From Bacteroidales bacterium (lineage in GTDB: Bacteria > Bacteroidota > Bacteroidia > Bacteroidales > WCHB1-69): DNA of 64,000 nucleotides. The notes under the pieces are model-generated. The model worked only from the letters and a program-made list of their open reading frames with translations, searched no databases and was not told where the DNA came from. Positions 1,305 through 31,562 of this stretch are shown in pieces (the stretch's first letter is position 1; each line of letters begins with the position of its first letter). The position numbers were made by a program, and so were the translations under genes. The stretch covers positions 2,221-66,220 of the forward strand of contig JAFZXM010000018.1 of the NCBI GenBank assembly GCA_017616775.1, written 5' to 3'.

Positions 1305-4300
1305 ATGATGAAAAGAATTTATTCATTGATAGTGATTTTTGTATTGGGAGCCCGGCTCTACGGTCAAGCTCCGGCGGAAAACAGCCATGCAAGCGATATG
1401 TCCCGCAAAGGGGAAACAGTCCATAACGCCAAGTTGTCGTCACACACCGCGATATTGCTGCGGGAAACGGCGGAAAAAACCTTGGAGGAAATTATCAGCG
1501 ACCGCTCACTTCAAGAAAGGTATCCGTTTTTCAACAAAAACGGTGTTCTTTATACACAGGCATTCATCATGTTGCAAGCCGGCAGGCAAATGCCCGAATG
1601 GGAGGCTTGGGGCGTACAGGTCAACACGCAGACCGGCACCTGTCTCACTGCCGACATACCTGTCAGGCAGATAACTGCATTGGCGGAATGTCCTGACATA
1701 GAATACATCCACGTGGGAGAGCGGGCTAATATACTCATGGACAGTGCCCGCAACAAAACTCATGTAAACGAGGTTTACAACGGATTGTCATTACCGCAGG
1801 CCTATAGGGGCAAGGATGTGGTGGTGGGCATCATAGACATAGGCTTTGACTACACGCATCCTAATTTTTATGATACAGCCGGTCAGGCATTACGCATAAA
1901 AAGAGTATGGGACCAAAACAATTCCGGCACCGCCCCCAACGGTTACAACTATGGCAGGGAGTTCACTACTGACAGTGCCATGCTTGCCGCAAAATACAGT
2001 CACTACAGTGAATCACACGGCAGCCATGTGGCCGGCATTGCCGCCGGAAGCGGCAGCAAAGACACCACTCCCTATAGAGGAGTTGCCCCCATGAGCGACA
2101 TAGTCATGGTTGGTACTAACATGTACACCACAGGCATTTTTGACGGAATATGCTATATCCGCAATTATGCCCAGTCGGTAGGCAAACCCTGTGTTATCAA
2201 TATGAGCATCGGCAGTCATGTGGGTCCGCACGACGGCACCTCTACCTTTGACCGCTATTGCGATGCACTCTTACAAACACCTTCCGCCTATGCGTGCATT
2301 TTGGTCGGCGCCGCCGGCAACGAAGGCGATGACAGTCTGCACCTCTGTGTCAACAGTGCCACCACCGCCTGCACTTTTTTGGATTATGGAAATATCGGCA
2401 GCAGAGGGTCAGGATATATAGATATATGGGGTGATACCAATGCGTCTTACAGCGTGATGTTATGCGTTTACAACAAAAACACCTCTTCCATTGTGGATTC
2501 CACATTATGGATAAGCCCTGGCAATACAAGTGCCAGCTGGAGATATGCACTCTATGACAACGATGCCACAAACAGGGATTCCGCTGTCATCACCATCAGC
2601 AGCGAAATAGACGCCTATAATCACAAGCCGCATGTGGAAATGTATGTAAACAACAGCAAACAGGACGACAGCATACAATTGCTCATGCTGAAAATTATCT
2701 CCAACAATTCGGCAAAAATACACGCATGGACCAATAGAGGAATGTTTACAAACAAAGGACTCGGGACACCTTTTGTTGCCGGCAACACCGACTATACCAC
2801 CGGAGAAATAGGCGGCAGCGGCAACAGCATACTGACAGTGGGAGCCTATACATCCAAACGCAATTGGGTGACCATCAACAACAAAAGCTATTATTATCCG
2901 AATGCCACGGTGAACGATATAGCCACATTTTCCAGCCACGGTCCCTCTGCCGACGGCAGGCACAAACCTGATGTCACCGCACCCGGACAAACATTGGTGT
3001 CGTCGGTCAATCACTTCCATAGTTCCTACCAGTCATCTTCATCGTATGTGGTAAAAGCCGTCAGCAACAATACCACCACATGGTATTATGCCACCATGCA
3101 GGGCACTTCCATGGCCACTCCCGCCACCACCGGCATCATCGCATTGTGGCTGGAAGCCTATCCGTATTTGACATTGGACCAGATAAAAATCATATTGCAG
3201 CATACAGCCGTCAGGGACAGCTATTACACCAATGCCGACACATGGGGAGTCGGCAAGATAGATGCTTATGCTGGATTGAACTATATTCTCAGTCAAACCT
3301 CCAAGCCGATGATTACCGCCTCCGATACCGTGCGTTGCGCAGGCGACACCATCACCTTGTCCACACGCACAGGATTTGCTTCCTATCAGTGGTCCACAGG
3401 AGATACTACATCTTATATTTCTGTAACAAATACGGGATTGTATGCGGTGAGAGTCGTTACAAGCGATGGTTTCATCAGTCAGTGGAGTGACACCATCGCC
3501 GTTTATTTTACCTCTGCACCTCTAACTCCTACCATTGCAAGACAAGATTCCACACTTACCTCCAGTGCCAATAATGGCAATCAGTGGTATTATAACAACA
3601 ATCCTATCAACGGAGCGACCGGCAAAACCTATACGGCTACCCAACCCGGCACCTACGGAGTGGTGGTCACCAACAACACAGGTTGTTCGTCCGCTATGGC
3701 AAGCATAGTAGTGGATTCGTCCGTGTTTGCGCCGCAAAAGCCGTCTATTACGCCCATAGGGGATGTTTATACATGTCAAGGCAACACCGTAACTTTAACG
3801 GCTCCGTCGGGATACAACTGCTATTTGTGGTCAACGGGACAAACCACCCGTCAAATCACCGTCAGCGACACCGGAGACTATTCCGTGAAAGTCGCCGACA
3901 AAGCCGGCTATTACAGTCCGTGGAGCGATACCGCCCGCGTGCATTTTTATGCAGCACCGCCTACACCTGTTATCACTGCCGATAAAAACATACTCACCTC
4001 CAATGTCAGCACCGGCAACCAATGGTATTACAATTCCCAGCCCATCAGCGGCGCCACCTCGCAAACCTATACTGCCACCGCTCCCGGCTTATATGGTGTA
4101 ATGGTCACCAATAGTCACGGCTGTGTGTCCGCTATGGCTGAAATCACGCTTGACAGCAGTGCCTTTGTTCCGGACAAGCCTAATGTCAGTCCTAACGGAG
4201 ACTTGTATGTTTGCCCCGGCGATTTCGTTACATTAACAGCCCCGGCAGGATATGATGCTTATGTATGGTCATCCGGACAGACAACGCCTTCTATTACCGT

Positions 4301-9302: not shown

Positions 9303-10436
9303 ATGAAAAAAATTATCGGATATTGTCTGTTGCTATGCTGCATACTCACGGCATGTCCCCGCCCCCAACCCGATATATTTAAGCCCACACCTTATCCTTT
9401 TTCCATTCCGCCCATGTTTCCCACCGTGGTGAACATCCCCGAAGACAATCCCCTGACTATAGAAGGGGTGCGCTTGGGCAGATATTTGTTTTATGACAGC
9501 CGGTTACGGGGTTATACAGGCAACAATCCCGATTCCATGATGTGCTGTGCCACCTGCCATGTGCAGTCCAACGCTTTTGTCTGCGGCATGAATAATCCGA
9601 AATTCCCGGGCGGCATTCCAAGAGGCATTAACGGACAACCCACTCACCACAATATGTTGCCGCTATGCAATTTGGCATTCAACACCAACGGATATGATTG
9701 GAACGGAGCCATTTACCCTCAAAACCCTCATCCGCACCTTAGAAATATAGAAGACATAGTGCTGATAAGTATTTTGGCTGAAAACGAACTTTTTTCTTCT
9801 CCGGAAAGATGTATTAACACACTCAAAAATATCAGCATCTACCCTCCTATGTTCAAAGCTGCCTTCGGGAGCGAAGATATTACAGCAGAACGTATCGCCA
9901 AGGCGATAGCCCAATTTGTGCGCACCCTGCTATCCTTCAATTCCCGTTTTGACCAATATATGCGCGGGGAAACCATGCTTTCCGAAGACGAATTGGCAGG
10001 TTGGGTGCTCTTCACCACCGAAGAAGGTGCCGATTGTTTTCATTGTCACGGCAGCAACGGTAATTTATTAATGACTACCAATATGTTTTACAACAACGGC
10101 TTGGACAGCACTTTTTCCGACCCCATGGACCGTTATGCCGTTACCGGCAACGAATACGACAAAGGCAGCTACCGCGCCCCTTCATTAAGGAATATAGCCC
10201 TTACCGCACCTTATATGCACGACGGACGCTTTGCCACTTTGGATGAAGTCATCGATTTTTACAGCGAAGGCCTGCAAGCCTCCCCTTACGTTCACCCGCT
10301 TATGCATCAAATCAACAACGGAGGCGTAATGCTTACACCAAAAGAAAAACGACAACTAAAAGCTTTTCTGCTCACACTTACTGACTATCAATTTATTCAA
10401 GACACCGCTTACGGCAAACCCGCGGATTTGCCATAA
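9303..10436 (+). CDS. di-haem cytochrome c peroxidase / MauG family lipoprotein
   Basis: Lipobox LTAC. Two CxxCH haem motifs (CATCH, CFHCH). PSLRNIALTAPYMHDGRFATL is typical of the family. Confidence 0.85.
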   Translation: MKKIIGYCLLLCCILTACPRPQPDIFKPTPYPFSIPPMFPTVVNIPEDNPLTIEGVRLGRYLFYDSRLRGYTGNNPDSMMCCATCHVQSNAFVCGMNNPKFPGGIPRGINGQPTHHNMLPLCNLAFNTNGYDWNGAIYPQNPHPHLRNIEDIVLISILAENELFSSPERCINTLKNISIYPPMFKAAFGSEDITAERIAKAIAQFVRTLLSFNSRFDQYMRGETMLSEDELAGWVLFTTEEGADCFHCHGSNGNLLMTTNMFYNNGLDSTFSDPMDRYAVTGNEYDKGSYRAPSLRNIALTAPYMHDGRFATLDEVIDFYSEGLQASPYVHPLMHQINNGGVMLTPKEKRQLKAFLLTLTDYQFIQDTAYGKPADLP

Positions 10437-15344: not shown

Positions 15345-17162
15345 TTAAACAAAAGATTGCATATCCACCATATGTTTATACAAGCCGTTTTTTGCCACCA
15401 GTTCGCTGTGCGAACCTTGTTCCGCAACCCTGCCGTGGTTGATTACTATAATATTATCGGCAGACACTATGGTAGCCAAACGATGCGCTATCACTATGCT
15501 GGTTCGTCCGCTAAGCATGCTGTCTATGGCTTGTTGCACCGATAGTTCCAGATGGGCATCCAAGGCGGAGGTGGCTTCATCCAACACCAATATTTCCGGC
15601 TGGCGCAAAAGTGCCCTGGCTATGCTTATCCTCTGCTTTTGTCCGCCCGACAAATTAGCCCCCCTGTCCCCTACATTGGTGTGGATACCCTCTTCCAACT
15701 GAGGCAAAAAATTGGTGACATTCGCCATGCGGGCCGCCTGCATCACGGCTTCTTCGGAGCTATCATAACCTAATGTAATGTTATTATATACGGTATCGTT
15801 AAAAAGTATACTCTCCTGCGAAACCACGCCGAATATTTTAAGCAGGCTGCTCAGGGTGATACAACGGATGTCAACACCATCAATCAAAATTTCGCCTGAC
15901 TGTATATCATAAAAACGCAACAATAGGTCAACTATGGTGGTTTTACCCGAACCCGACATGCCGCAGATAGCCGTTTTTTGCCCTTTGACAATTTCAAAAT
16001 TCAAATCCGACAGCACTTCCTTGTCACCATAAGAAAAACATACGTTTTTAAATACTATCTTATCTTTAAATTCATTCAAATCCACACAATTGTCACTCTG
16101 CTCCGCTGTTTCGTCACTTTCCAGCAAGGCATTGATACGCTCTATGGATGCCATGCCTTTTTTGAGATTTGCCACCGCTTCGGACAAGGACTTCATGGGA
16201 TTAATCACCTGTATGAATATCATAATATAGGTAATGAACAGCTCGGCTGTAAACGCATTATCCTGCGACAACACCTGCACACTGCCGTAAAGCAGAATCA
16301 CCACCACTATCAACACCCCCGAAAATTCTCCCAAAGGAGAAGACAAATCCCTTCGGCGCGATATTTTGATAAATATATCGGTATATTTTGCATTGATACG
16401 GTTAAAATAATCGCTCATCCTGCCTATGCCGTTAAAAGCCTTTATTACACGCAATGCATAAATACCCTCTTCTATGGTGGTGGTCATCTCCGACTGATAT
16501 TCCTTGGCTTGTTTGGAATTCGATTTCAATTTTCTTTGCAATTTATTGATAAGCAAACCTGCCAAGGGCAAAAGCACCAATACCAACAAGCTTAACTTAT
16601 AATTGATTAAAAACAAAGCCGATAAATATATCACCACTTCCAAAGGAAAACGCAAAAAAGACTGCAAAGAATCCAATATGGAAGTGTCTATCTCTTGAAT
16701 ATCATTAATAACCAATGATATGATATCACCTTTTTTATGTTTGGAAAAATAAGAAACGGGTAAATGAAGCATTTTTTGATAAGCATTGTGCCTGAACATT
16801 TTAACCACCGCCGTGCGGATAGGAATAAGTATGCACACCGCCGAATAGGCCAATACCTTGCTCAACAAAAAGGAGACAAACACCACGCACAACAATATCA
16901 ACAAGGCCAACAAGGCTCCGTGCCCTGTAATAATTACAGACAGATAATACTGGGCATAAGCCAGAAGCGTATCGGAAGTAAAGGAAAAGGAAGGCGGAGT
17001 CATATCCGCTTTCACCTGATTGAATACCAATGATAATAAGGGGGCCAGAATAGCGACGGAACACAAGGAAAAAAATGCCGACAACAAATTCACTACCGAA
17101 ACGGACAACAAGCGATAACGGTAAGGGAACAATATACGGCCTATTTTTTTATAATCGTTCAT
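15345..17162 (-). CDS. ABC transporter permease/ATP-binding fusion (MsbA-like exporter)
   Basis: N-terminal six-helix TMD. Walker A GMSGSGKTT, signature LSGGQKQRISIARA, Walker B ILVLDEATSALD. Confidence 0.92.
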   Translation of the reverse strand: MNDYKKIGRILFPYRYRLLSVSVVNLLSAFFSLCSVAILAPLLSLVFNQVKADMTPPSFSFTSDTLLAYAQYYLSVIITGHGALLALLILLCVVFVSFLLSKVLAYSAVCILIPIRTAVVKMFRHNAYQKMLHLPVSYFSKHKKGDIISLVINDIQEIDTSILDSLQSFLRFPLEVVIYLSALFLINYKLSLLVLVLLPLAGLLINKLQRKLKSNSKQAKEYQSEMTTTIEEGIYALRVIKAFNGIGRMSDYFNRINAKYTDIFIKISRRRDLSSPLGEFSGVLIVVVILLYGSVQVLSQDNAFTAELFITYIMIFIQVINPMKSLSEAVANLKKGMASIERINALLESDETAEQSDNCVDLNEFKDKIVFKNVCFSYGDKEVLSDLNFEIVKGQKTAICGMSGSGKTTIVDLLLRFYDIQSGEILIDGVDIRCITLSSLLKIFGVVSQESILFNDTVYNNITLGYDSSEEAVMQAARMANVTNFLPQLEEGIHTNVGDRGANLSGGQKQRISIARALLRQPEILVLDEATSALDAHLELSVQQAIDSMLSGRTSIVIAHRLATIVSADNIIVINHGRVAEQGSHSELVAKNGLYKHMVDMQSFV

Positions 17163-23610: not shown

Positions 23611-24057
23611 ATGAGTTTAGAACAAACCATTAACAACGACATAAAAACCGCCATGTTGGCAAAAGACAAAAAAAGTCTGGACGCTTTGCGTGCCATAAAA
23701 TCCGCCATTTTATTGCTCAAAACCGATAAAAGTATCGGGGAAATCACCCCTGAGATAGAAATATCCACTTTACAGAAAATGGCCAAACAGCGCAAAGAAT
23801 CGGCTGAAATGTATAAGGCTCAAGGAAGAGACGACCTTTACAAAGAAGAGCTTGACCAACTTGATATCATATCCAAATATTTACCCGAACAACTGAATGC
23901 GGATGAAATCAAAACGCAACTGCAAGCCTTAATATCCCAACATGGAATTACAAGTATTAAGGATATGGGCCGATTAATGGGTATTGCAAGCAAATATTTT
24001 TCAGGAAAAGCCGACAACAAAACCATAGCGGAAATTGTCAAATCCCTGCTTAAATAA
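23611..24057 (+). CDS. GatB/YqeY domain protein
   Basis: INNDIKTAMLAKDKKSLDALRAIKSAILL and the typical C-terminal KDMGRLMG..GKADNK..IVKSLL. Confidence 0.85.
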   Translation: MSLEQTINNDIKTAMLAKDKKSLDALRAIKSAILLLKTDKSIGEITPEIEISTLQKMAKQRKESAEMYKAQGRDDLYKEELDQLDIISKYLPEQLNADEIKTQLQALISQHGITSIKDMGRLMGIASKYFSGKADNKTIAEIVKSLLK

Positions 24058-24124
24058 ATCATCAATTATCCAACAAAAAAAATAATTCCGTTGCGATATC
24101 TTGCGACAGTACGGAGCGGAATAG

Positions 24125-24610
24125 TTGAATTTTATGAAAAAATATATCAAAAACGTTTTTGCGGACGAAGATTACAATTGTTTTGCATGTGGGCCGCACA
24201 ACCCCATCGGCTTGCGCCTACAATTTTACGAAGAAGACGAATATGTAAAAACCGAATGGGAACCCTCAAAAAATTTTGAAGGCTATCCCACTTGTGTTCA
24301 CGGAGGCATACAAGCCGTATTATTAGACGAAATAGCTGCATGGACATTATACATCAAAGGGCAACGCGCCGGTGTTACAAGCCGCATGTCTGTTCGCTAT
24401 TGCAAAAAATTGGACAGCGATCAAGGAACCATCACCGCCGAAGGAAAAATCAAAAAAATCCTTTACGATTTTTGTTATATCGATGCCTGTCTGTACAATG
24501 CAAAACACGAACTCTGCGCCAAAGCCGAAGTAATATATTATATGTTTTCCAAAGAAGAAAGCATGGAAAAATACCGTTTTCCTGTCCGACAAGAAGATTT
24601 CTATTTGTAA
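24125..24610 (+). CDS. PaaI-family hotdog-fold thioesterase
   Basis: CFACGPHNPIGLRLQF followed by VHGGIQAVLLDE. Confidence 0.7.
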   Translation: MNFMKKYIKNVFADEDYNCFACGPHNPIGLRLQFYEEDEYVKTEWEPSKNFEGYPTCVHGGIQAVLLDEIAAWTLYIKGQRAGVTSRMSVRYCKKLDSDQGTITAEGKIKKILYDFCYIDACLYNAKHELCAKAEVIYYMFSKEESMEKYRFPVRQEDFYL

Positions 24611-24613
24611 ACC

Positions 24614-25093
24614 ATGTGTGCGGCTAAAAAAATCATCACCACCAAGCAAGCCATACAAAAAATAAAACGCTATTGCGCCCATGCCGAACATTGCCAATCG
24701 GAAGTGAGAGCAAAACTTTCGGAATACGGAATGGATGCAGCAACAACAGAATCGGTGATTTGTGATTTGATAAGCGAAGGCTATATCAACGAATACCGAT
24801 ATACCAACGCTTATATCCGGGGCAAATTCAATATCAAGGGATGGGGAAAAAACAAAATCATCGCCGCCTTAAAAGCCAAACACATCAGCACCCCATGCAT
24901 ATTGTCGGCATTACAAAACATAGACGACACCTCTTATCGGGAAAAACTGCAACATTTGATACAAAAATGGCGTCATTCCCACCCCGGGGACCTCACCTAT
25001 GCCCAACGGGCCAAACTGATGCGGTTTTTATTGTCCAAAGGATACAGCATGGAAGAGATTAACACCACCCTTACCTTTAATGATGATATATGA
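24614..25093 (+). CDS. recX: regulatory protein RecX
   Basis: RecX-like repeated helical units (YCAHAEHCQSEVRAKL..., EGYINEYRYTNAYIRGK, GWGKNKIIAALKAK). Confidence 0.75.
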   Translation: MCAAKKIITTKQAIQKIKRYCAHAEHCQSEVRAKLSEYGMDAATTESVICDLISEGYINEYRYTNAYIRGKFNIKGWGKNKIIAALKAKHISTPCILSALQNIDDTSYREKLQHLIQKWRHSHPGDLTYAQRAKLMRFLLSKGYSMEEINTTLTFNDDI

Positions 25094-25114
25094 ATTTTAT
25101 CCGAAAAAAAATTT

Positions 25115-25122
25115 TATCTTTG
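25115..25122 (+). promoter_or_regulatory. -7 box TATCTTTG for prfB
   Basis: Lies 18 nt upstream of the ATG at 25140. Confidence 0.55.
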
Positions 25123-25139
25123 CAGAAAATATTTGATTA

Positions 25140-26229
25140 ATGAATGATTTTGAACTAAAAAACATGTTACAAAGGTCCTCCGAATTAAGGAGGTGTCTTT
25201 GACATAGACAAAAAACTGCAAATAATAGCGGAAAAAGAAGCCGAAAGTCATGCTCCGGATTTTTGGGGCAATGCTCAAGAAGCCGAAAAAACATTAAAGC
25301 ACATCAATGAACTGAAAGTTTGGACCGACGCCTATGCCGACATGGAAAGCATGGTGACGGAATTTCAATTGGCATTGGAATTTTTCGCCTCCGGCGATAT
25401 TTCCGAAGAAGAATTGCAGTCCAACTACCAAAAAGCCATCAAAGCCATCAACGACATGGAATTCAAGCGCATGCTGTCGGGTGAAGAAGACAGCCTCGGC
25501 GCTACCATCTCCATCAATTCCGGAGCCGGCGGCACCGAAAGTCAGGATTGGGCGGAAATGCTATTGCGCATGTATAGCCGTTGGGCGGAAGACCATCATT
25601 TTAAAATTAAAGAAATAGATAGGCTGGAAGGCGATGTTGCCGGAATAAAATCGGTAACCGTAGAATTGGAAGGCGCCTATGCCTACGGCAATCTAAAAGG
25701 CGAAAGCGGCGTACATCGTCTGGTAAGACTATCTCCTTTTGACGCCGCCAACCGCCGGCACACTTCCTTTGCCTCGGTATTTGTATGTCCTATGATCAAC
25801 GATGATATCAACATTGACATCAACCCCAATGAAATAGAATGGGACACTTTCCGCAGCAGCGGTCCCGGCGGACAAAATGTCAATAAGGTGGAAACAGCAG
25901 TAAGACTGCATCACATCCCCACCGATATTGTAATTGAATGTCAAATCACACGCTTCCAATCCCAAAATAAAGAAAAAGCCCTGCAAATGCTCAAATCCAG
26001 ACTCTATGAAATTGAATTGCAAAAAAAACATGCAAAAATAGATGAGATGGAAAACAATAAAAAGAAAATTGAATGGGGCTCCCAAATCCGCAACTATGTG
26101 CTTCACCCTTACAAATTGGTGAAAGACAACCGCACCGGATACGAAACCGGCAACGCCCAAGCTGTCCTTGACGGCGACTTGGACGGCTTTATCAAAGCTT
26201 ATCTGATGGAATTCGGAAACAAAGGGTAA
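25140..26229 (+). CDS. prfB: peptide chain release factor 2, with programmed +1 frameshift at 25197-25203
   Basis: Frame 0 runs 25140-25199 ([20 protein letters not shown]) and ends at an in-frame TGA at 25200. The +1 frame from 25201 (DIDKKLQ...) runs into the ORF-track ORF 25342..26229. SPF (LSPFD) and GGQ ([19 protein letters not shown]) motifs are present. Confidence 0.95.
25188..25203 (+). promoter_or_regulatory. prfB +1 frameshift cassette: SD-like AGGAGG, 3-nt spacer, CTT TGA C
   Basis: The sequence AGG AGG TGT CTT TGA C is read directly. It is the same slippery architecture as the E. coli prfB autoregulatory site. Confidence 0.9.
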
Positions 26230-26243
26230 ATCATATAATATAT

Positions 26244-26672
26244 ATGTCAAGAAAAACAAAAATATCGCTTTCCCGCCTCGAATCCTTTTTGAAGGCCCAG
26301 TGCGTCCGCCCGCGCACCAGCATGGATGCCGCTGAATATAAGAACTATATCATCGCTTTACTCTTTCTGAAACGCATCAACGACCAGTTTGAAATTGACA
26401 GATTGGCGTTGAAGTAGGATTTGAAAAAGCAGTATCCTAATGCAGATGAGGCGACTATTAACGAAGAACTGGATATTCCCGAAAAGTATAACTGTTATGT
26501 GCCGGCTTTAGCCCGATGGAAATATTTGCTTCACCCATTGAATGATGATGGCGAGGAACTCAGTTACGGCGATGCCATCACCACCGCATTGGCCGAAGAT
26601 GGGATTACTACCCCGCAAGGTGCAAATAAAAACAGAACATATTGTGTTGTAATTAAGGATGCCGACCGATGA
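26244..26672 (+). pseudogene. hsdM: type I R-M methyltransferase HsdM, N-terminal remnant with an in-frame TAG
   Basis: MSRKTKISLSRLESFL...MDAAEYKNYIIALLFLKRINDQF is the HsdM N-terminal-domain signature. A TAG sits at 26415-17. The same frame continues with YVPALARWKYLL and ends at 26672. The catalytic methyltransferase domain is absent. Confidence 0.75.
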
Positions 26673-26764
26673 AGAATGTACAATGGAAGACGGTGAAGCC
26701 GGAGGACTTGCGCTTACACTTTGCCCATAGAATTTTCAAACAACCAATAAAAAAGTTTTTATAA
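26669..26764 (+). pseudogene. possible HsdS start stub (31 codons)
   Basis: ATGA overlap with the hsdM remnant stop. MKNVQWKTVKPEDL resembles HsdS N-termini (..WK.VKLGD.). It runs into AT-rich DNA after about 20 codons. Confidence 0.25.
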
Positions 26765-26790
26765 AATCGTTTTCGTATTATTTTTTTTAA

Positions 26791-26798
26791 TATCTTTG
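26791..26798 (+). promoter_or_regulatory. -7 box TATCTTTG at the left edge of the AT-rich cassette
   Basis: Perfect common variant of the box. It would give a leader of about 300 nt before the ATG at 27110. Confidence 0.4.
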
Positions 26799-27109
26799 CA
26801 GAATAAATAAACTTAATTAAAACAATTTTAAACTGAAAAAATATATAAAACCAAATTTAAGAGAAAATAGAATAAACTATATTAAACGTATAAAAGAATA
26901 GGTTTCTCACTTGCCCAAAAAACATCTGCCTCACATTCCAGAGCAGCGTCGCTTAGCTAATATATTATCGCGATAGACAGTAAGATAGAAATGGAGGAAA
27001 ATGTTTTGGAGAAATATAAGAAAATGAAGAATGGGTTGACGGAGAGGTCGTTGAACGAAAAATAAGAAATGAATATAACTGATTTTAAACTATAAAAACA
27101 ACTTGAAAG

Positions 27110-28090
27110 ATGTTTCCAATCCACACATTAAACTCAAATATCACAAATATTTTACAAAAGATTTTGAGTGCTAATATTTTAGGCAATATACAAAATGGAC
27201 TTCAACCTGAAATCAAATTCATAGATGAATGTTCTCATATTTCTAATGTGGCTGAGATTAAAGGGAATAGCCATAACGCACAAGTGTATTTATCATCGGC
27301 TTATTGTCAGTTTTTATGGCTGCTGGATGACATAGCATTAAAACTGATTGATTTTAGCATAATACAAGATGAATGCATAAAGAATAATATTGAGGTTGTA
27401 ACATACAAAAAAAGTACTGAATACCTTATACAAAATCCTGAAATATTGAATGTATTAGCAAATAGATATGGCATTGATTTTAATCAGTATTTTGAATATT
27501 TAAGAAGAACTGTTCAATTGTTGGAAAGAGATGAGTTCGAGCGAAACATTAAAAAGGAATGGGCTCTTGCTGAATCTTTAATAAACTCTAGCAGAACCAT
27601 TTGTATTAATGATTTTAATGAGATTGATTTCAATGGGCTCTATGAACAATTAGTGAATTCAGTTTATTGCTTTGGAGTTTCATTTATCTTGTTACACGAA
27701 CTAACTCATTTTGCAATGGGTCATCTTGAGAAAGAAGAAGAGATGCAAGATGAAGAAAACGCTGATTTTTCAGCTTTTTGGAACTTGTATAATGATTTAA
27801 AAGATAGAGAGTTGTTTTCTGCAAATATTGGAATACTTTGTGCCTTATTTTCTTTGCTAATGTTAAATCCCAATATGGAGGAAGATGAAATTCACCCCAA
27901 AGAGAGTGATAGAATTTTTTATATTTTCGACCAGATTAGTGAAGATAATCCAAAATATTCAGTATTAATCATTAAATTATTTGCAATGTGGGCGGAAAAA
28001 TTCAATATTCAGGAATTTCCAGACATTAATGGTTATGCTAGTGAATCATTGAAATTAATTCGCGATTTTATGAATAATTATAAATTCTGA
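27110..28090 (+). CDS. cytoplasmic HExxH protein (putative zinc metalloprotease; candidate abortive-infection/defence effector), 326 aa
   Basis: SFILLHELTHFAMGHLEKEEEMQDEENADFSAF contains HExxH plus acidic residues 15-20 aa downstream (gluzincin-like spacing). No signal peptide or TM helix. Strongly AT-rich relative to neighbours. Embedded in a decayed type I R-M locus. Confidence 0.7.
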   Translation: MFPIHTLNSNITNILQKILSANILGNIQNGLQPEIKFIDECSHISNVAEIKGNSHNAQVYLSSAYCQFLWLLDDIALKLIDFSIIQDECIKNNIEVVTYKKSTEYLIQNPEILNVLANRYGIDFNQYFEYLRRTVQLLERDEFERNIKKEWALAESLINSSRTICINDFNEIDFNGLYEQLVNSVYCFGVSFILLHELTHFAMGHLEKEEEMQDEENADFSAFWNLYNDLKDRELFSANIGILCALFSLLMLNPNMEEDEIHPKESDRIFYIFDQISEDNPKYSVLIIKLFAMWAEKFNIQEFPDINGYASESLKLIRDFMNNYKF

Positions 28091-28096
28091 ATTCCC

Positions 28097-28174
28097 ATGT
28101 CCGAATACCTCAACGTAGAGCACCCTTTTCTCGAAAAAATCATTTCATCTGAAAAGTGTAATTTTACAAACTAA
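28097..28174 (+). pseudogene. hsdR: HsdR 5-prime stub A (first 13 codons conserved, then unrelated)
   Basis: MSEYLNVEHPFLEK matches the typical HsdR N-terminus and the second copy at 29319. The ORF is only 25 aa. Confidence 0.4.
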
Positions 28175-28203
28175 AAAGAAGGGAATAAAATGTAAATCAG
28201 AAA

Positions 28204-29277
28204 ATGAACCCCTTAGATTCAGATAATAAAATTGTGCCACCGCTGTTGTCATACTCTTTGGTAGAAGATTTGCGGCAGATTATAGAGCAGGCACGTGGGC
28301 GAGTGGCCGCAACGGTCAACAGCGAACTAACTATGATGTACTGGCACATTGGCGAGCGCATCAACCGCGAAGTGCTTGGCAACCAACGAGCTGAGTACGG
28401 AAAGCAGATTGTCGCGACAGTGTCTCGACAATTGCAAGAAGAATATGGAAAGAAAGGATTTGAAGAGAGAACAATCCGCCGAATGATGCAGTTTGCGGAA
28501 ATCTTCCCCGACTTTCAAATTGTGTCAACACTGTTGTCAAAATTGTCGTGGTCTCATTTCTTAACAGTTATGACAATCAAAGACGAATTGCAACGTGAAT
28601 TTTATATTACGATGGCAGCATCGGAAAAATGGAGCGTGAGAACGCTTCAGGAGAAAATCGACGGTATGCTCTACGAGCGTACAGCCATCAGCAGCAAGCC
28701 CAATGCACTTATCAAGCAAGAACTTTCGCAACTGCGCGATGAAAATGTACTCTCGCCCGATTTGGTGTTCAAAAGCCCTTACTTCCTTGAATTCACAGGC
28801 TTGATAAGGAATGTACAGCGAGAAGAGTCTGGAAGACAGCCTTGTGGCTCATCTGGAGCAGTTCATCATTGAGTTGGGCAATGGCTTCAGTTTTGTCCCC
28901 GTCAGAAACGGATGATTATCGACGGGGAAGACTTTTATCTCGATTTGTTGTTCTATCATCGTCGTCTGCACCGACTCATTGCCATCGACTTGAAACTTGG
29001 CAGATTCAAGGCCAAATACAAGGGTCAGATGGAGCTTTACCTGCGTTGGCTGGAGCAAAACGAGATGGAGCCAGGCGAGGAAACACCGCTCGGCCTGTTG
29101 CTCTGCACTGAAGGCGGCGAAGAACAGATTGAACTGCTGCAACTTGACAAGTCTGGCATCAAGGTCGCCCAGTATATGACCGAACTGCCGCCAAGAGAGG
29201 TTCTGCTGCGTCAGATTCAAAAATCATTGGAATCAGCCAAACTTCGGATTGAAAATAAAATCAATGCCGAAGAATAA
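28204..29277 (+). pseudogene. DUF1016/YhcG-family PDDEXK nuclease gene with two compensating frameshifts
   Basis: The N-terminal part (TMMYWHIGERINREVLGNQRAEYGKQIVATVSRQL, SWSHF) and C-terminal part (IIDGEDFYLDLLFYHRRLHRLIAIDLKLGRFKAKYKGQMELYLRWL) are in the same frame. The stretch from about 28811 to 28899 (MYSEKSLEDSLVAHLEQFIIELGNGFSFVP) is readable only in the +1 frame. Confidence 0.85.
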
Positions 29278-29318
29278 TATTAATTGTTCATTGTAAATTG
29301 TTAATTGTTAAATTGCTT

Positions 29319-29517
29319 ATGTCCGAATACCAACGTTGAGCATCCCTTTCCCGAAAAGCTCCGAAAAATGGCTGGCAAGTGACAGACAAGGGCGGCGGCA
29401 TACTGCAGGATGCTGCCGAAAACCCGAGAAACCTTTATCAAATTAATAAAAACAAGAACTGCCACAGCCTCATTTATAACCGTGGCGTAACATTGAGTCT
29501 GGAATAAAAACAAACCG
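29319..29517 (+). pseudogene. hsdR: HsdR 5-prime stub B (about 65 codons, multiply frameshifted)
   Basis: ATGTCCGAATACC..AACGTTGAGCATCCCTTT repeats 28097-28137 with a 2-nt deletion. A shifted frame reads NGWQVTDKGGGILQDAAENPRNL, typical of HsdR N-terminal domains. Confidence 0.5.
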
Positions 29518-29551
29518 TTTTTTTATAACCGGCTCTAATGCCGCTTAAGCA

Positions 29552-30142
29552 TTACCTGCCTTGATACCTCTCCTCTATCACCTGCCAATCTATAATCTGC
29601 CAAAGGGCATTGAGATAATCGGGACGGCGGTTTTGCCAATCGAGATAATATGCATGTTCCCAAACGTCGAAGGTGAGCAGCGGTGTCAACCCTTTTTGAA
29701 CGGGATTGGCGGCATTGGCATATTGGGAAATATACAATTTGCCATCTGCACCGGCTTCCAGCCACACCCAACCGGAACCGAACAAGGCGGCTCCCGCCTG
29801 CACAAATTCCTTTTGGAAATTTTCAAAAGAACCGAACTGTCTGTCAATGGCTGCCGCCAAATCTCCCACAGGACGGGCATCGGAAGACGGTGCGGCAAAC
29901 TGCAGAAAATAGAGATTGTGATTCAAAATCTGCCCTGCATTGTTCTGCATGCCGCCGTCAGACTGGCGGACTATGTCTTCCAAATTCATGGATTCAAACG
30001 GAGTGCCTTCTGCCAATTTGTTCAAATTATTGACATATCCCTGCAAATGTCTGCCGTGATGATAGGCAATGGTTTGTTCGGAAATAACAGGTTCCAGAGC
30101 TTTTGCTCCGTAAGGTAATGTAAGTAATTCAAATTTTGCCAT
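29552..30142 (-). CDS. sodB: Fe/Mn superoxide dismutase
   Basis: MAKFELLTLPY, HHGRHL, DVWEHAYYLDWQNRRPDY. Start moved to 30142 because a -7 box at 30173-80 lies inside the longer ORF. Confidence 0.95.
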   Translation of the reverse strand: MAKFELLTLPYGAKALEPVISEQTIAYHHGRHLQGYVNNLNKLAEGTPFESMNLEDIVRQSDGGMQNNAGQILNHNLYFLQFAAPSSDARPVGDLAAAIDRQFGSFENFQKEFVQAGAALFGSGWVWLEAGADGKLYISQYANAANPVQKGLTPLLTFDVWEHAYYLDWQNRRPDYLNALWQIIDWQVIEERYQGR

Positions 30143-30172
30143 GGTAAAAAAAATTACATTCAACAATTGTAT

Positions 30173-30180
30173 CAAATATA
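30173..30180 (-). promoter_or_regulatory. -7 box TATATTTG (minus strand)
   Basis: Plus-strand CAAATATA lies 31 nt upstream of the corrected sod start. Confidence 0.5.
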
Positions 30181-30326
30181 ACGTTTTCATCCGCAGATTA
30201 TTGTGCTTTTATTAAAAAAATCCTTCTTTTGTCCATATCGCCCCGTTTTTTTTTGATGATCTGCTCCGATGATGCAATATATTTCACCAAAACACGTTTT
30301 ATAACATGTTTTAAACATCCGACACC

Positions 30327-31562
30327 ATGAACCGATTATTAGAGCGATTTTTACGATATATAAGTATGGACACACAGTCGTGTGAAACATCCGGCACCGT
30401 TCCGAGCACCAAGGCGCAGACGGCGTTTGCCGCCATGCTGGCAGAAGAATTGCAACAGGCAGGTCTGCAACAAATACACCTGTCTCCATATGGAATATTG
30501 ACGGCTACCCTGCCTGCCAACACGAACCGTCCGATTCCCCCCATAGGCTTCATTGCCCACATGGACACCTCCCCCGACTTTAGCGGAGCTGACGTACAAG
30601 CTCAAATACACCCCGATTACCGGGGTACCGACCTCGTATTGGGGAATCACATTGTGCTCAGCACCACTATGTTTCCGCAATTAAAACAATACACCGGCTA
30701 CACCATTATCACCACCGACGGCACTACGCTTCTGGGTGCTGACGATAAAGCCGGTATCGCAGAAATAATATACGCCATGGAATATTTAACGGCTCATCCT
30801 GAAATAGAACATGGAGACATACACATTGCCTTTACTCCTGATGAAGAAATAGGCAGGGGCGTTGACCATTTTGACCTTCCGGCCTTTAAAGCCCGCTACG
30901 CCTACACCGTTGATGGAGGTGGAGAAGGTGAATTTGAATATGAAAATTTCAATGCAGCACAGGCAGAAATAATGATACGGGGATGCAATGTGCACCCGGG
31001 GTCGGCAAAAGGCATTATGCTCAACTCACAGCTGATAGCCATGGAGCTGCAACAAATGCTTCCATCCCGACAGCGGCCCGAATTAACTGAGGACAGAGAA
31101 GGTTTTTTTCATCTGTGTCATATTAACGGCACCGTGGAATTATCCACCCTCTCGTATATTATCCGCGACCATGACAAAAACGAATTTGAACACAAAAAAC
31201 TATTGCTTCAACAATGCGTATATCAGCTTAATCAAAAATACGGGCAATGTATATCCTGCCAAATAAGCGACCAATATTACAACATGAAAGAGATAATAGA
31301 AAAAGTCCCTTTTATGGTGGATTTAGCCAAGCTATCCATCACGCAGGCAGGTGCCGTACCGCACATATTGCCCATTCGGGGAGGCACCGACGGCGCCCGC
31401 TTATCGTTTATGGGTCTGCCCTGCCCCAACCTGTTTACCGGCGGGCATAATTTCCATGGAAAATATGAATTTACAGTCTTGGAAAGCATGTACAAAGCAA
31501 GCATGACCATAGTCAATCTTGCCCGTAATTATGCTCTGGCGGATATTCCGGACCATATATGA
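30327..31562 (+). CDS. pepT: peptidase T (tripeptide aminopeptidase, M20B)
   Basis: LLERFLRYISMDTQS, FIAHMDTSPD, LGADDKAGIAEI, IRGGTDGA. Confidence 0.95.
   Translation: MNRLLERFLRYISMDTQSCETSGTVPSTKAQTAFAAMLAEELQQAGLQQIHLSPYGILTATLPANTNRPIPPIGFIAHMDTSPDFSGADVQAQIHPDYRGTDLVLGNHIVLSTTMFPQLKQYTGYTIITTDGTTLLGADDKAGIAEIIYAMEYLTAHPEIEHGDIHIAFTPDEEIGRGVDHFDLPAFKARYAYTVDGGGEGEFEYENFNAAQAEIMIRGCNVHPGSAKGIMLNSQLIAMELQQMLPSRQRPELTEDREGFFHLCHINGTVELSTLSYIIRDHDKNEFEHKKLLLQQCVYQLNQKYGQCISCQISDQYYNMKEIIEKVPFMVDLAKLSITQAGAVPHILPIRGGTDGARLSFMGLPCPNLFTGGHNFHGKYEFTVLESMYKASMTIVNLARNYALADIPDHI

Follow-up and report, generated by a model that had tools for sequence, protein, structure and literature searches.

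Remnants of a type I restriction–modification operon between prfB and sod

This study concerns a 64,000-nucleotide stretch of DNA from an uncultured, rumen-type Bacteroidales bacterium (the window) and, within it, the interval between the release factor gene prfB and the superoxide dismutase gene sod (positions 26230 to 29551). The interval contains stubs of the hsdM, hsdS and hsdR genes of a type I restriction–modification (R-M) system, fragments of ygjP and two cargo genes, an intact one for a Lit-like metalloprotease and a frameshifted one for a DUF1016/YhcG nuclease, all on the forward strand. A first-pass annotation, made from the sequence alone, had described a decayed type I locus here, and every element that it listed was present at the position it had given. 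The profile search with hidden Markov models that it proposed matched HsdM_N and DUF1016/YhcG and did not find N6_Mtase, Methylase_S or HSDR_N; a three-frame Pfam scan of the forward strand returned only HsdM_N, DUF1016_N and YhcG_C, and no ResIII either. HsdM is thus reduced to HsdM_N positions 1–83 and has no N6_Mtase catalytic domain, HsdS to about 14 N-terminal and 44 C-terminal codons in place of two target-recognition domains, and HsdR to two 5' ends of 14 and 27 codons in place of the HSDR_N nuclease and ResIII/helicase motor. With the catalytic domains absent, the locus can neither methylate nor restrict, and no working type I system lies elsewhere in the 64-kb window.

The hsdM 5' stub (26244–26597) comprises codons 1–118 and the N-terminal domain only. 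The open reading frame (ORF) at 26244–26672 matched Pfam HsdM_N (E = 2e-12, profile positions 1–83 of 135) and the PADLOC MTase_I models for type I methyltransferases (best E = 5e-15). The stub is 94% identical in amino acids and 89.5% in nucleotides to residues 30–147 of the intact 887-residue HsdM of L003, an operon described below. It is interrupted by an in-frame TAG at 26415–26417, and its homology to HsdM stops at 26597, not at the end of the ORF at 26672. The remaining tail (26598–26672), the TGA of which overlaps the next ATG (ATGA), could derive from the 3' end of hsdM or from that of a cargo gene since lost.

That ATG opens the hsdS 5' stub (26669–26764), a 31-codon ORF that passes into unrelated sequence after about 14 recognisable codons (MKNVQWKTVKPEDL). 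The stub is 95% identical over 21 nt to the hsdS start of L003 (E = 4e-4), and MKNVQWKTVKPEDL matches the HsdS N-terminus NEQWKTVRLGDL of three further operons (L088–L090). An AT-rich spacer (26765–26928) separates it from an hsdS 3' stub (26929–27065) that had escaped the first-pass annotation. This second stub, recovered by tblastn, retains the last 44 codons and the original TAA stop at 27063–27065; it reads PHIPEQRRLANILS / IDSKIEMEENVLEKYKKMKNGLTERSLNEK* with one frameshift near 26970, is 70% identical to L003 HsdS residues 373–416 (E = 4e-9) and shares 84–93% of its nucleotides with five hsdS 3' ends. A shufflon or phase-variable hsdS was considered and rejected, because hsdS segments do not recur as inverted repeats and a recombinase is lacking.

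The 5' end of hsdR is present in two copies. The first (28097–28140, codons 1–14) lies downstream of the Lit-like gene and encodes MSEYLNVEHPFLEK; its first 41 nt (28097–28137) are 100% identical to the hsdR start of L003. The second (29319–29399, codons 1–27) is 83–88% identical over 65–84 nt to four hsdR starts (L003, L085, L086 and L088). It carries a 2-nt deletion after 29328 and is in frame in L002, which represents a second strain lineage of the same species. A repeat search missed the pair because of this indel, and alignment recovered both copies. The alignment also revealed differences at third codon positions, and the two copies are diverged alleles, not a fresh duplication.

Two fragments of ygjP, likewise new to the description of this locus, follow the second hsdR stub. 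An internal fragment (29407–29451) corresponds to residues 110–124 of a 229-residue protein, with about 91% identity over 32–33 nt to three ygjP genes (L003, L086 and L088) and 10 of 15 residues identical. The candidate 3' end (29454–29507; last 16 codons and stop, GVTLSLE*) aligns with L003 YgjP residues 213–228 of 229 and ends at the stop, with E = 0.14 on its own; its assignment draws mainly on position, which makes it the weakest of the stubs. In L002 (12210–12400, equivalent to 29319–29507 of the window), where the 2-nt deletion is absent, the hsdR stub runs into the ygjP C-terminal fragment as an open, chimeric hsdR–ygjP frame of 63 codons (MSEYTNVEHPFPEKLRKMGWQV...GVTLSLE*), which is presumably meaningless. 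Altogether, the stubs imply at least four deletion junctions, at 26597/8, about 26711–26928, about 29400–29406 and 29451–29454.

Intact operons of the same family and their cargo

An exact-sequence look-up of the 326-residue Lit-like protein returned the population of the window itself and one intact operon, L003. This operon has the order hsdM (887 residues)–DUF1016 (362)–hsdS (416)–a 422-residue protein–Lit-like gene–hsdR (1086)–AAA_14/DUF4143–ygjP, and its Lit-like protein is 100% identical to that of the window; its DUF1016 protein is only 25% identical to the window DUF1016. The ETF-alpha protein of L003 is identical to MBR3578445, and the window proteins match MBO4581256–60, from another series of metagenome-assembled genome (MAG) records, MBO45812xx; judging from these records, L003 probably comes from a different organism and is not a second locus of the window genome. 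The 13-kb R-M and cargo island of L003 lies between direct copies of an RNase_T-family gene (2606–3100 and 16355–16849; 82% identity over 496 nt), and this suggests that the gene was a site of insertion or duplication.

A second intact operon, L085, has the order hsdM–hsdS–Lit-like gene (a 69% homologue)–a 421-residue protein–SLFN_AlbA_2–hsdR–ygjP. Comparison with L085 and L003 made clear that the stubs in the window (hsdM', hsdS', Lit, hsdR', DUF1016, hsdR', ygjP') follow the gene order of this operon family, and the first-pass reading of a dead type I operon with stubs still in operon order was borne out. Operons with HsdR at least 90% identical (L086, L088) hold other cargo in the same two slots, including a TIR-nSTAND protein, an S1-domain protein and an AlbA_2 protein. 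In L088 (7029–9560), and also in L089 and L090, the hsdS–hsdR slot is occupied by an 843-residue TIR-nSTAND NTPase, with a 440-nt gap rich in small ORFs ahead of hsdR. In this R-M family the 90% cluster of HsdM comprises 99 members and the cluster of HsdR 41. The 421/422-residue protein accompanies the Lit-like gene in three of four contexts (L003 8497–9765, L045 8121–9386 and L085 10201–11466). It is encoded by an AT-rich gene, is 79% identical between L003 and L045, is absent from the window and matched no Pfam family; it may be a functional partner or merely frequent co-cargo.

From these comparisons we conclude, with a probability of roughly 0.8, that the prfB–sod interval is a collapsed hsdM–hsdS–[cargo]–hsdR–ygjP operon in which two cargo genes have outlived the R-M system. 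The operon would have been dismantled by four or more internal deletions, together with a nonsense codon and small indels, with loss of the methyltransferase catalytic domain, both HsdS target-recognition domains, HsdR beyond codon 27 and nearly all of YgjP. The survivors of the hsdS–hsdR slot would be the Lit-like metalloprotease, still intact, and the DUF1016/YhcG nuclease, kept under purifying selection until very recently.

A divergent Lit-like metalloprotease is the intact gene of the interval

The gene at 27110–28090 is the only intact gene of the interval, as the first-pass annotation had stated without identifying it. It encodes a 326-residue HExxH protein that matched PADLOC Lit (E = 1e-15) and, at 44.8 bits against an equivalog cut-off of 274, the NCBIfam model "phage exclusion protein Lit" (PRK09672; E = 9e-12). 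Pfam PF10463.15 (Peptidase_U49) scored 16.4 bits, with a gathering score of 23.9; PF10463.16 was precomputed on all 56 homologues found (56/56). Alignment of the family profile with E. coli K-12 Lit (b1139) by hhalign gave E = 3e-5 and a probability of 72%, with the catalytic core aligned, and BLASTP identity between the two proteins was 24%. In the core, HELTHFAMGH...QDEENAD...HP of the Lit-like protein aligns with HEISHVVLQH...QEEREAD...HP of E. coli Lit. Residues H196, E197, H200, H205 and E215 do not vary among 34 homologues, and H196-E197-L-T-H200 constitutes the HExxH motif that aligns with HEISH of Lit. An AlphaFold2 (AF2) model had a mean confidence (pLDDT) of 94.7, and no solved structural relative was found. 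These alignments indicate that the protein is probably a divergent member of the Lit/U49 superfamily and not a Lit orthologue.

The phage collection contained no homologue of the protein. Plasmids yielded two weak partial matches, one of them annotated as Lit family, and PHROGs only weak or unannotated families. The ratio of nonsynonymous to synonymous substitution rates (dN/dS) within the Lit-like family is 0.11–0.24, and the family is therefore under purifying selection.

The AT-rich spacer upstream of the hsdS 3' stub carries a Bacteroidetes-type –7 promoter motif (TAnnTTTG), TATCTTTG at 26791–26798, its sole occurrence on the forward strand of the interval. The TATCTTTGCAGAA motif is shared by the 26791 site and the region upstream of prfB at 25116. 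On the strength of this motif, TATCTTTG is a candidate promoter of the Lit-like gene, which would be transcribed either from there or by read-through from prfB.

A probable recent exchange of the Lit-like allele in the hsdS–hsdR slot

The Lit-like gene is AT-rich, with a GC content of 0.30 against 0.42 for the window and 0.42–0.45 for its neighbours. Over 27007–28137 the window is 99.56% identical to L003 (9898–11028); four of the five differences lie in the hsdS scar and one is a synonymous change in the Lit-like gene. Selection cannot explain this figure next to the 89.5% identity of the hsdM stub, since synonymous sites would diverge too, and the contrast therefore implies that the present Lit-like allele was exchanged by recombination with another genome fairly recently. 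Comparison of the window with L002 gave divergences of 0.2–0.5% for core genes, 1.2% for the hsdM stub, 1.6% for DUF1016, 2.6% for 29278–29551 and 12% for 28091–28203. The Lit-like gene does not differ at any of its 981 nt between these two strain lineages, the neighbouring pseudogenes of which differ by 1.2–12%.

The first-pass annotation had proposed a defence-island integration hotspot at which R-M was lost first and the AT-rich gene came in later as replacement cargo. Its low GC content relative to the neighbours, an exchange that postdates the divergence of the hsdM alleles (99.6% for the Lit-like segment against 89.5% for the hsdM stub, both to L003) and the presence of different genes between prfB and sod in the sister species UBA1205 speak for such an arrival. 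However, L003, which is intact, encodes the identical protein between its hsdS and hsdR genes, and the 69% homologue occupies the same slot in L085. In the window the gene is still contiguous with the hsdS 3' and hsdR 5' ends, and the interval contains no integrase, att site or transposase. Low GC goes with the gene in living operons too: it is 0.28 for the Lit-like gene inside the L085 operon, where hsdM has 0.49, and the family is low in GC in nearly every context examined, with L049 (0.41) as the exception. Replacement of an allele by homologous recombination also gives high identity without any new insertion. The other cargo gene speaks against replacement as well, because a DUF1016 gene is also part of the intact L003 operon and the window DUF1016 allele recurs (97%) between two hsdR 5' scars in L045. 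We therefore regard arrival after R-M loss as unlikely and favour a Lit-like gene that was cargo of the operon before its collapse.

The DUF1016 nuclease gene was inactivated twice, the protease gene in no sampled strain

The second cargo gene (28204–29277) encodes a DUF1016/YhcG PD-(D/E)xK nuclease, PADLOC candidate PDC-S02, and is a pseudogene. DUF1016_N (28204–28872; E = 2e-49) and YhcG_C (28912–29277; E = 5e-24) lie in different frames, in agreement with the frameshift read from the sequence earlier, and both parts match PDC-S02 (E = 1e-77). Comparison with L002 and L043 located the lesions: an extra T at 28805 and a G missing after 28897, that is, +1 and –1 indels with a premature TGA at 28870–28872 between the two domains, which no longer share one ORF. 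The L002 lineage instead carries two nonsense codons, S115* and E173*. The frame is open in L043 and L045, and the different lesions of the two lineages mean that DUF1016 was inactivated independently twice. Once repaired, the gene encodes 357 residues, about 97% identical to the intact L045 gene (96.5–97.5% by segment) with a dN/dS of 0.09, and it was therefore functional until recently. L043 has a mosaic allele: it is 100% identical to the window downstream of about 29055 and about 80% identical, with an open frame, upstream, so that a recombination breakpoint lies near 29055 (L043 1222–2162 corresponds to window 28660–29600). Several metagenome contigs end exactly at points of this kind (28131–28137, 29054 and 29176). 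The leader of the cassette (28141–28203) is 92% identical over 65 nt to L045 9434–9497 and includes a –7-like motif, TAATTTTA at 28159–28166, which reads TAATTTTG in L002 and L045.

The fate of the two cargo genes bears on whether the Lit-like protease is a guardian of the PrrC type, one that needs an R-M complex for silencing and trigger and would be inert or decaying here. Such a role fits the prrC position of the gene between hsdS and hsdR in L003 and L085, and the decay of the neighbouring DUF1016 cargo soon after the R-M collapse. However, near-exclusive embedding in type I R-M operons was not observed. Only relatives of 69–100% identity are in or adjoin hsd genes; homologues at or below 50% identity lie outside R-M loci, and more than 30 more distant Lit-like loci have no hsd gene within 7–8 kb. 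Among 33 metagenome loci, hsd sequence was present in two: L052, which is a copy of the L003/L004 type, and L053, where an hsdS 3' end lies upstream of a 70% homologue. Other homologues reside in a CTnDOT-like conjugative element or a polysaccharide locus. In L045 (GCA_045534635.1), a 70% homologue is intact in an array without hsd genes, ordered hsdS 3' scar–Lit–a 421-residue protein–hsdR 5' scar–DUF1016–hsdR 5' scar, and the window gene is intact in all sampled strains. E. coli Lit is a stand-alone protein that needs no R-M system. The lack of hsd neighbours in most family members, the L045 array and the stand-alone E. coli Lit together favour autonomy over PrrC-like dependence, and we consider dependence on the lost R-M complex improbable, somewhat more so than the late arrival of the gene.

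If autonomous, the Lit-like protein would function by itself as a protease of abortive infection. On the model of E. coli Lit, it would remain latent up to the appearance of a phage product, whereupon it would cleave a host translation factor. One homologue, that of L046–L048 (7001–14100; 46% identity), lies beside Tra genes of a CTnDOT-like conjugative element. After it come genes for a SIR2_2-domain protein, a DUF87 ATPase and an AAA_11/AAA_12 helicase, and the group looks like a defence cluster on a mobile element.

hsdS and hsdR scars between cargo genes

Fragments of hsdR 5' and hsdS 3' ends occur between cargo genes where the slot holds at least two of them (L003, L085 and L045) and are absent with a single cargo gene (L086 and L088). 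L003 has an hsdR 5' scar (9782–9850) and an hsdS 3' scar (9879–9956) ahead of its Lit-like gene; L085 has one hsdR 5' scar (9996–10067) and L045 has two. The window and L045 share the module hsdR 5' (14 codons)–leader–DUF1016–hsdR 5' with 92% identity over 1286 nt, although their loci are at unrelated chromosomal sites. This pattern suggests that the scars reflect stacking of cargo from different operons via conserved gene ends. The duplicated hsdR 5' ends of the window would then be junction scars of tandem cargo joining and not two decayed hsdR genes.

Under such a scheme, cargo genes would move with a piece of the hsdS 3' end, the hsdR 5' end or both. The gene ends would serve as homology anchors, and cassettes would be stacked in tandem with hsdR 5' and hsdS 3' scars left at the joints, either through one-sided homology and an illegitimate join or through integration of a circle. 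The anchors would outlive the R-M genes, so that a dead operon would go on exchanging cargo; the 99.6% shared Lit-like allele, the mosaic DUF1016 of L043 and the 12% divergent patch at 28091–28203 are the grounds for supposing continued exchange. We offer only tentatively the general model that the type I operon of these rumen Bacteroidales is a platform for exchangeable defence cassettes with hsdS 3' and hsdR 5' anchors, and that it keeps exchanging when dead.

Flanking genes and distribution of the interval

The flanking core genes are intact, as reported before. On the left, prfB (25140–26229, forward strand) encodes release factor 2 with PCRF and RF-1 domains and shows the normal programmed +1 frameshift at CTT TGA C (25197–25203), with AGGAGG upstream, as read from the sequence; because of this frameshift, the ORF list gives only the downstream 295 codons. 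The AGGAGG is a Shine-Dalgarno-like stimulator in a Bacteroidales genome, a group in which Shine-Dalgarno sequences are generally little used. On the right, sod (29552–30190, reverse strand) encodes an Fe/Mn superoxide dismutase with Sod_Fe_N and Sod_Fe_C domains. An Rfam search of 24000–31000 gave no match.

The decayed interval was present in all 16 same-species contigs (16/16) from several ENA, Logan and NCBI assemblies; the arrangement was seen in contigs from at least five independent assemblies of different samples, and contigs of 86.9 kb, 46.6 kb and 32.1 kb cover the whole prfB–sod interval. Its presence in all these contigs means that the wreck is no artefact and that the collapse is older than the sampled diversity. 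A chimeric metagenome assembly, or chance similarity of the stubs, might be suspected from the MAG source and from the ends of several contigs at 28131–28137, 28543, 29054 and 29176, in sequence shared with other genomes. Yet the E-values of the profile and BLAST matches are far beyond chance, and independent assemblies from different samples (ENA, Logan and NCBI data) agree on this arrangement; we judge such an origin very improbable.

None of the same-species contigs showed an intact R-M system or an empty prfB–sod site. The nearest species representative is UBA1205 (L010), with a 96% identical prfB, and it is the only other species in which prfB adjoined sod. Its interval is 1.47 kb long, has no R-M genes and holds different genes; the interval is therefore variable between species. 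The proposed comparison of this interval across related genomes thus yielded alternative genes but no strain with intact R-M, and the suggestion of an integration hotspot has weak support: the interval differs in UBA1205, but this is one comparison, with no empty or intact allele. Within the UBA1205 interval, L010 10909–12281 encodes a DUF4846 protein (E = 1e-56) and, on the minus strand, a 187-residue protein with an HUH-like motif (HVHAII) and a weak, sub-threshold match to IS200-like Y1 transposases (E = 0.003), possibly a REP-associated tyrosine transposase.

Discussion

Several observations weigh against the reading of a collapsed operon with two outliving cargo genes, or against parts of it. 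Sequences at 26598–26668 and 26711–26928 have no match in any of the loci compared. A recent import by recombination, and not selection, could account for the absence of differences in the Lit-like gene between strains. The relation to Lit is distant (24% identity, 72% probability, scores below the NCBIfam and Pfam cut-offs), and the substrate could differ. The promoter at 26791 is putative, being proposed from its motif.

The E. coli prr locus has the order hsdM–hsdS–prrC–hsdR. The locus described here resembles prr and other embedded systems in gene order, in the cargo occupying the hsdS–hsdR slot and in the cargo having the orientation of the operon. Unlike in those systems, the operon that housed the cargo no longer works and nothing but cargo has outlived it; unlike in prr, the cargo is a Lit-like protease and not an anticodon nuclease, and hsdR 5' and hsdS 3' scars separate the cargo genes. 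E. coli K-12 Lit, a member of peptidase family U49 encoded by the e14 prophage, cleaves EF-Tu and is triggered by the Gol peptide of phage T4. The Lit-like protein shares with it the HExxH core and downstream residues, a comparable size (326 versus 297 residues) and single-gene, defence-linked contexts. In contrast to E. coli Lit, it belongs to another phylum, lies outside a prophage, differs in its N-terminal half and is about 24% identical. Defence genes embedded in type I operons have been catalogued, with DUF1016 as a candidate (Payne et al., bioRxiv 10.1101/2024.01.29.577857), and the biology of PrrC has been described (PMC12707154).

The process itself is ordinary, and the locus is an unusually legible example of it. 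Bacterial genomes commonly contain R-M systems that have decayed or been orphaned, and here as in others R, M and S were lost by deletion and nonsense mutation with the flanking core genes untouched. The difference is that both ends of several genes remain recognisable and intact reference operons are available, and each breakpoint can therefore be mapped. Homology-facilitated illegitimate recombination, in which homology on one side serves as the anchor, is known from natural transformation. The arrangement hsdR 5'–leader–cargo–hsdR 5' is what an anchor at the hsdR start and an illegitimate left join would be expected to give, although here the process would be read from scars alone. What is new here is confined to one well-resolved example, a divergent Lit-like family that occupies the prrC slot, and a model of cargo exchange built on the scars.

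The locus amounts to a natural experiment on which embedded passengers depend on the host R-M system. The Lit-like gene is intact in every sampled strain and DUF1016 was lost twice. This contrast is no proof, but it suggests an autonomous protease and a DUF1016 nuclease that may need a working R-M partner or be costly without one. The locus also brings to light a divergent branch of the Lit protease superfamily, found in Bacteroidales and in the same slot as PrrC, and its mapped scars provide a concrete model of how defence genes may be embedded and stacked inside type I operons.

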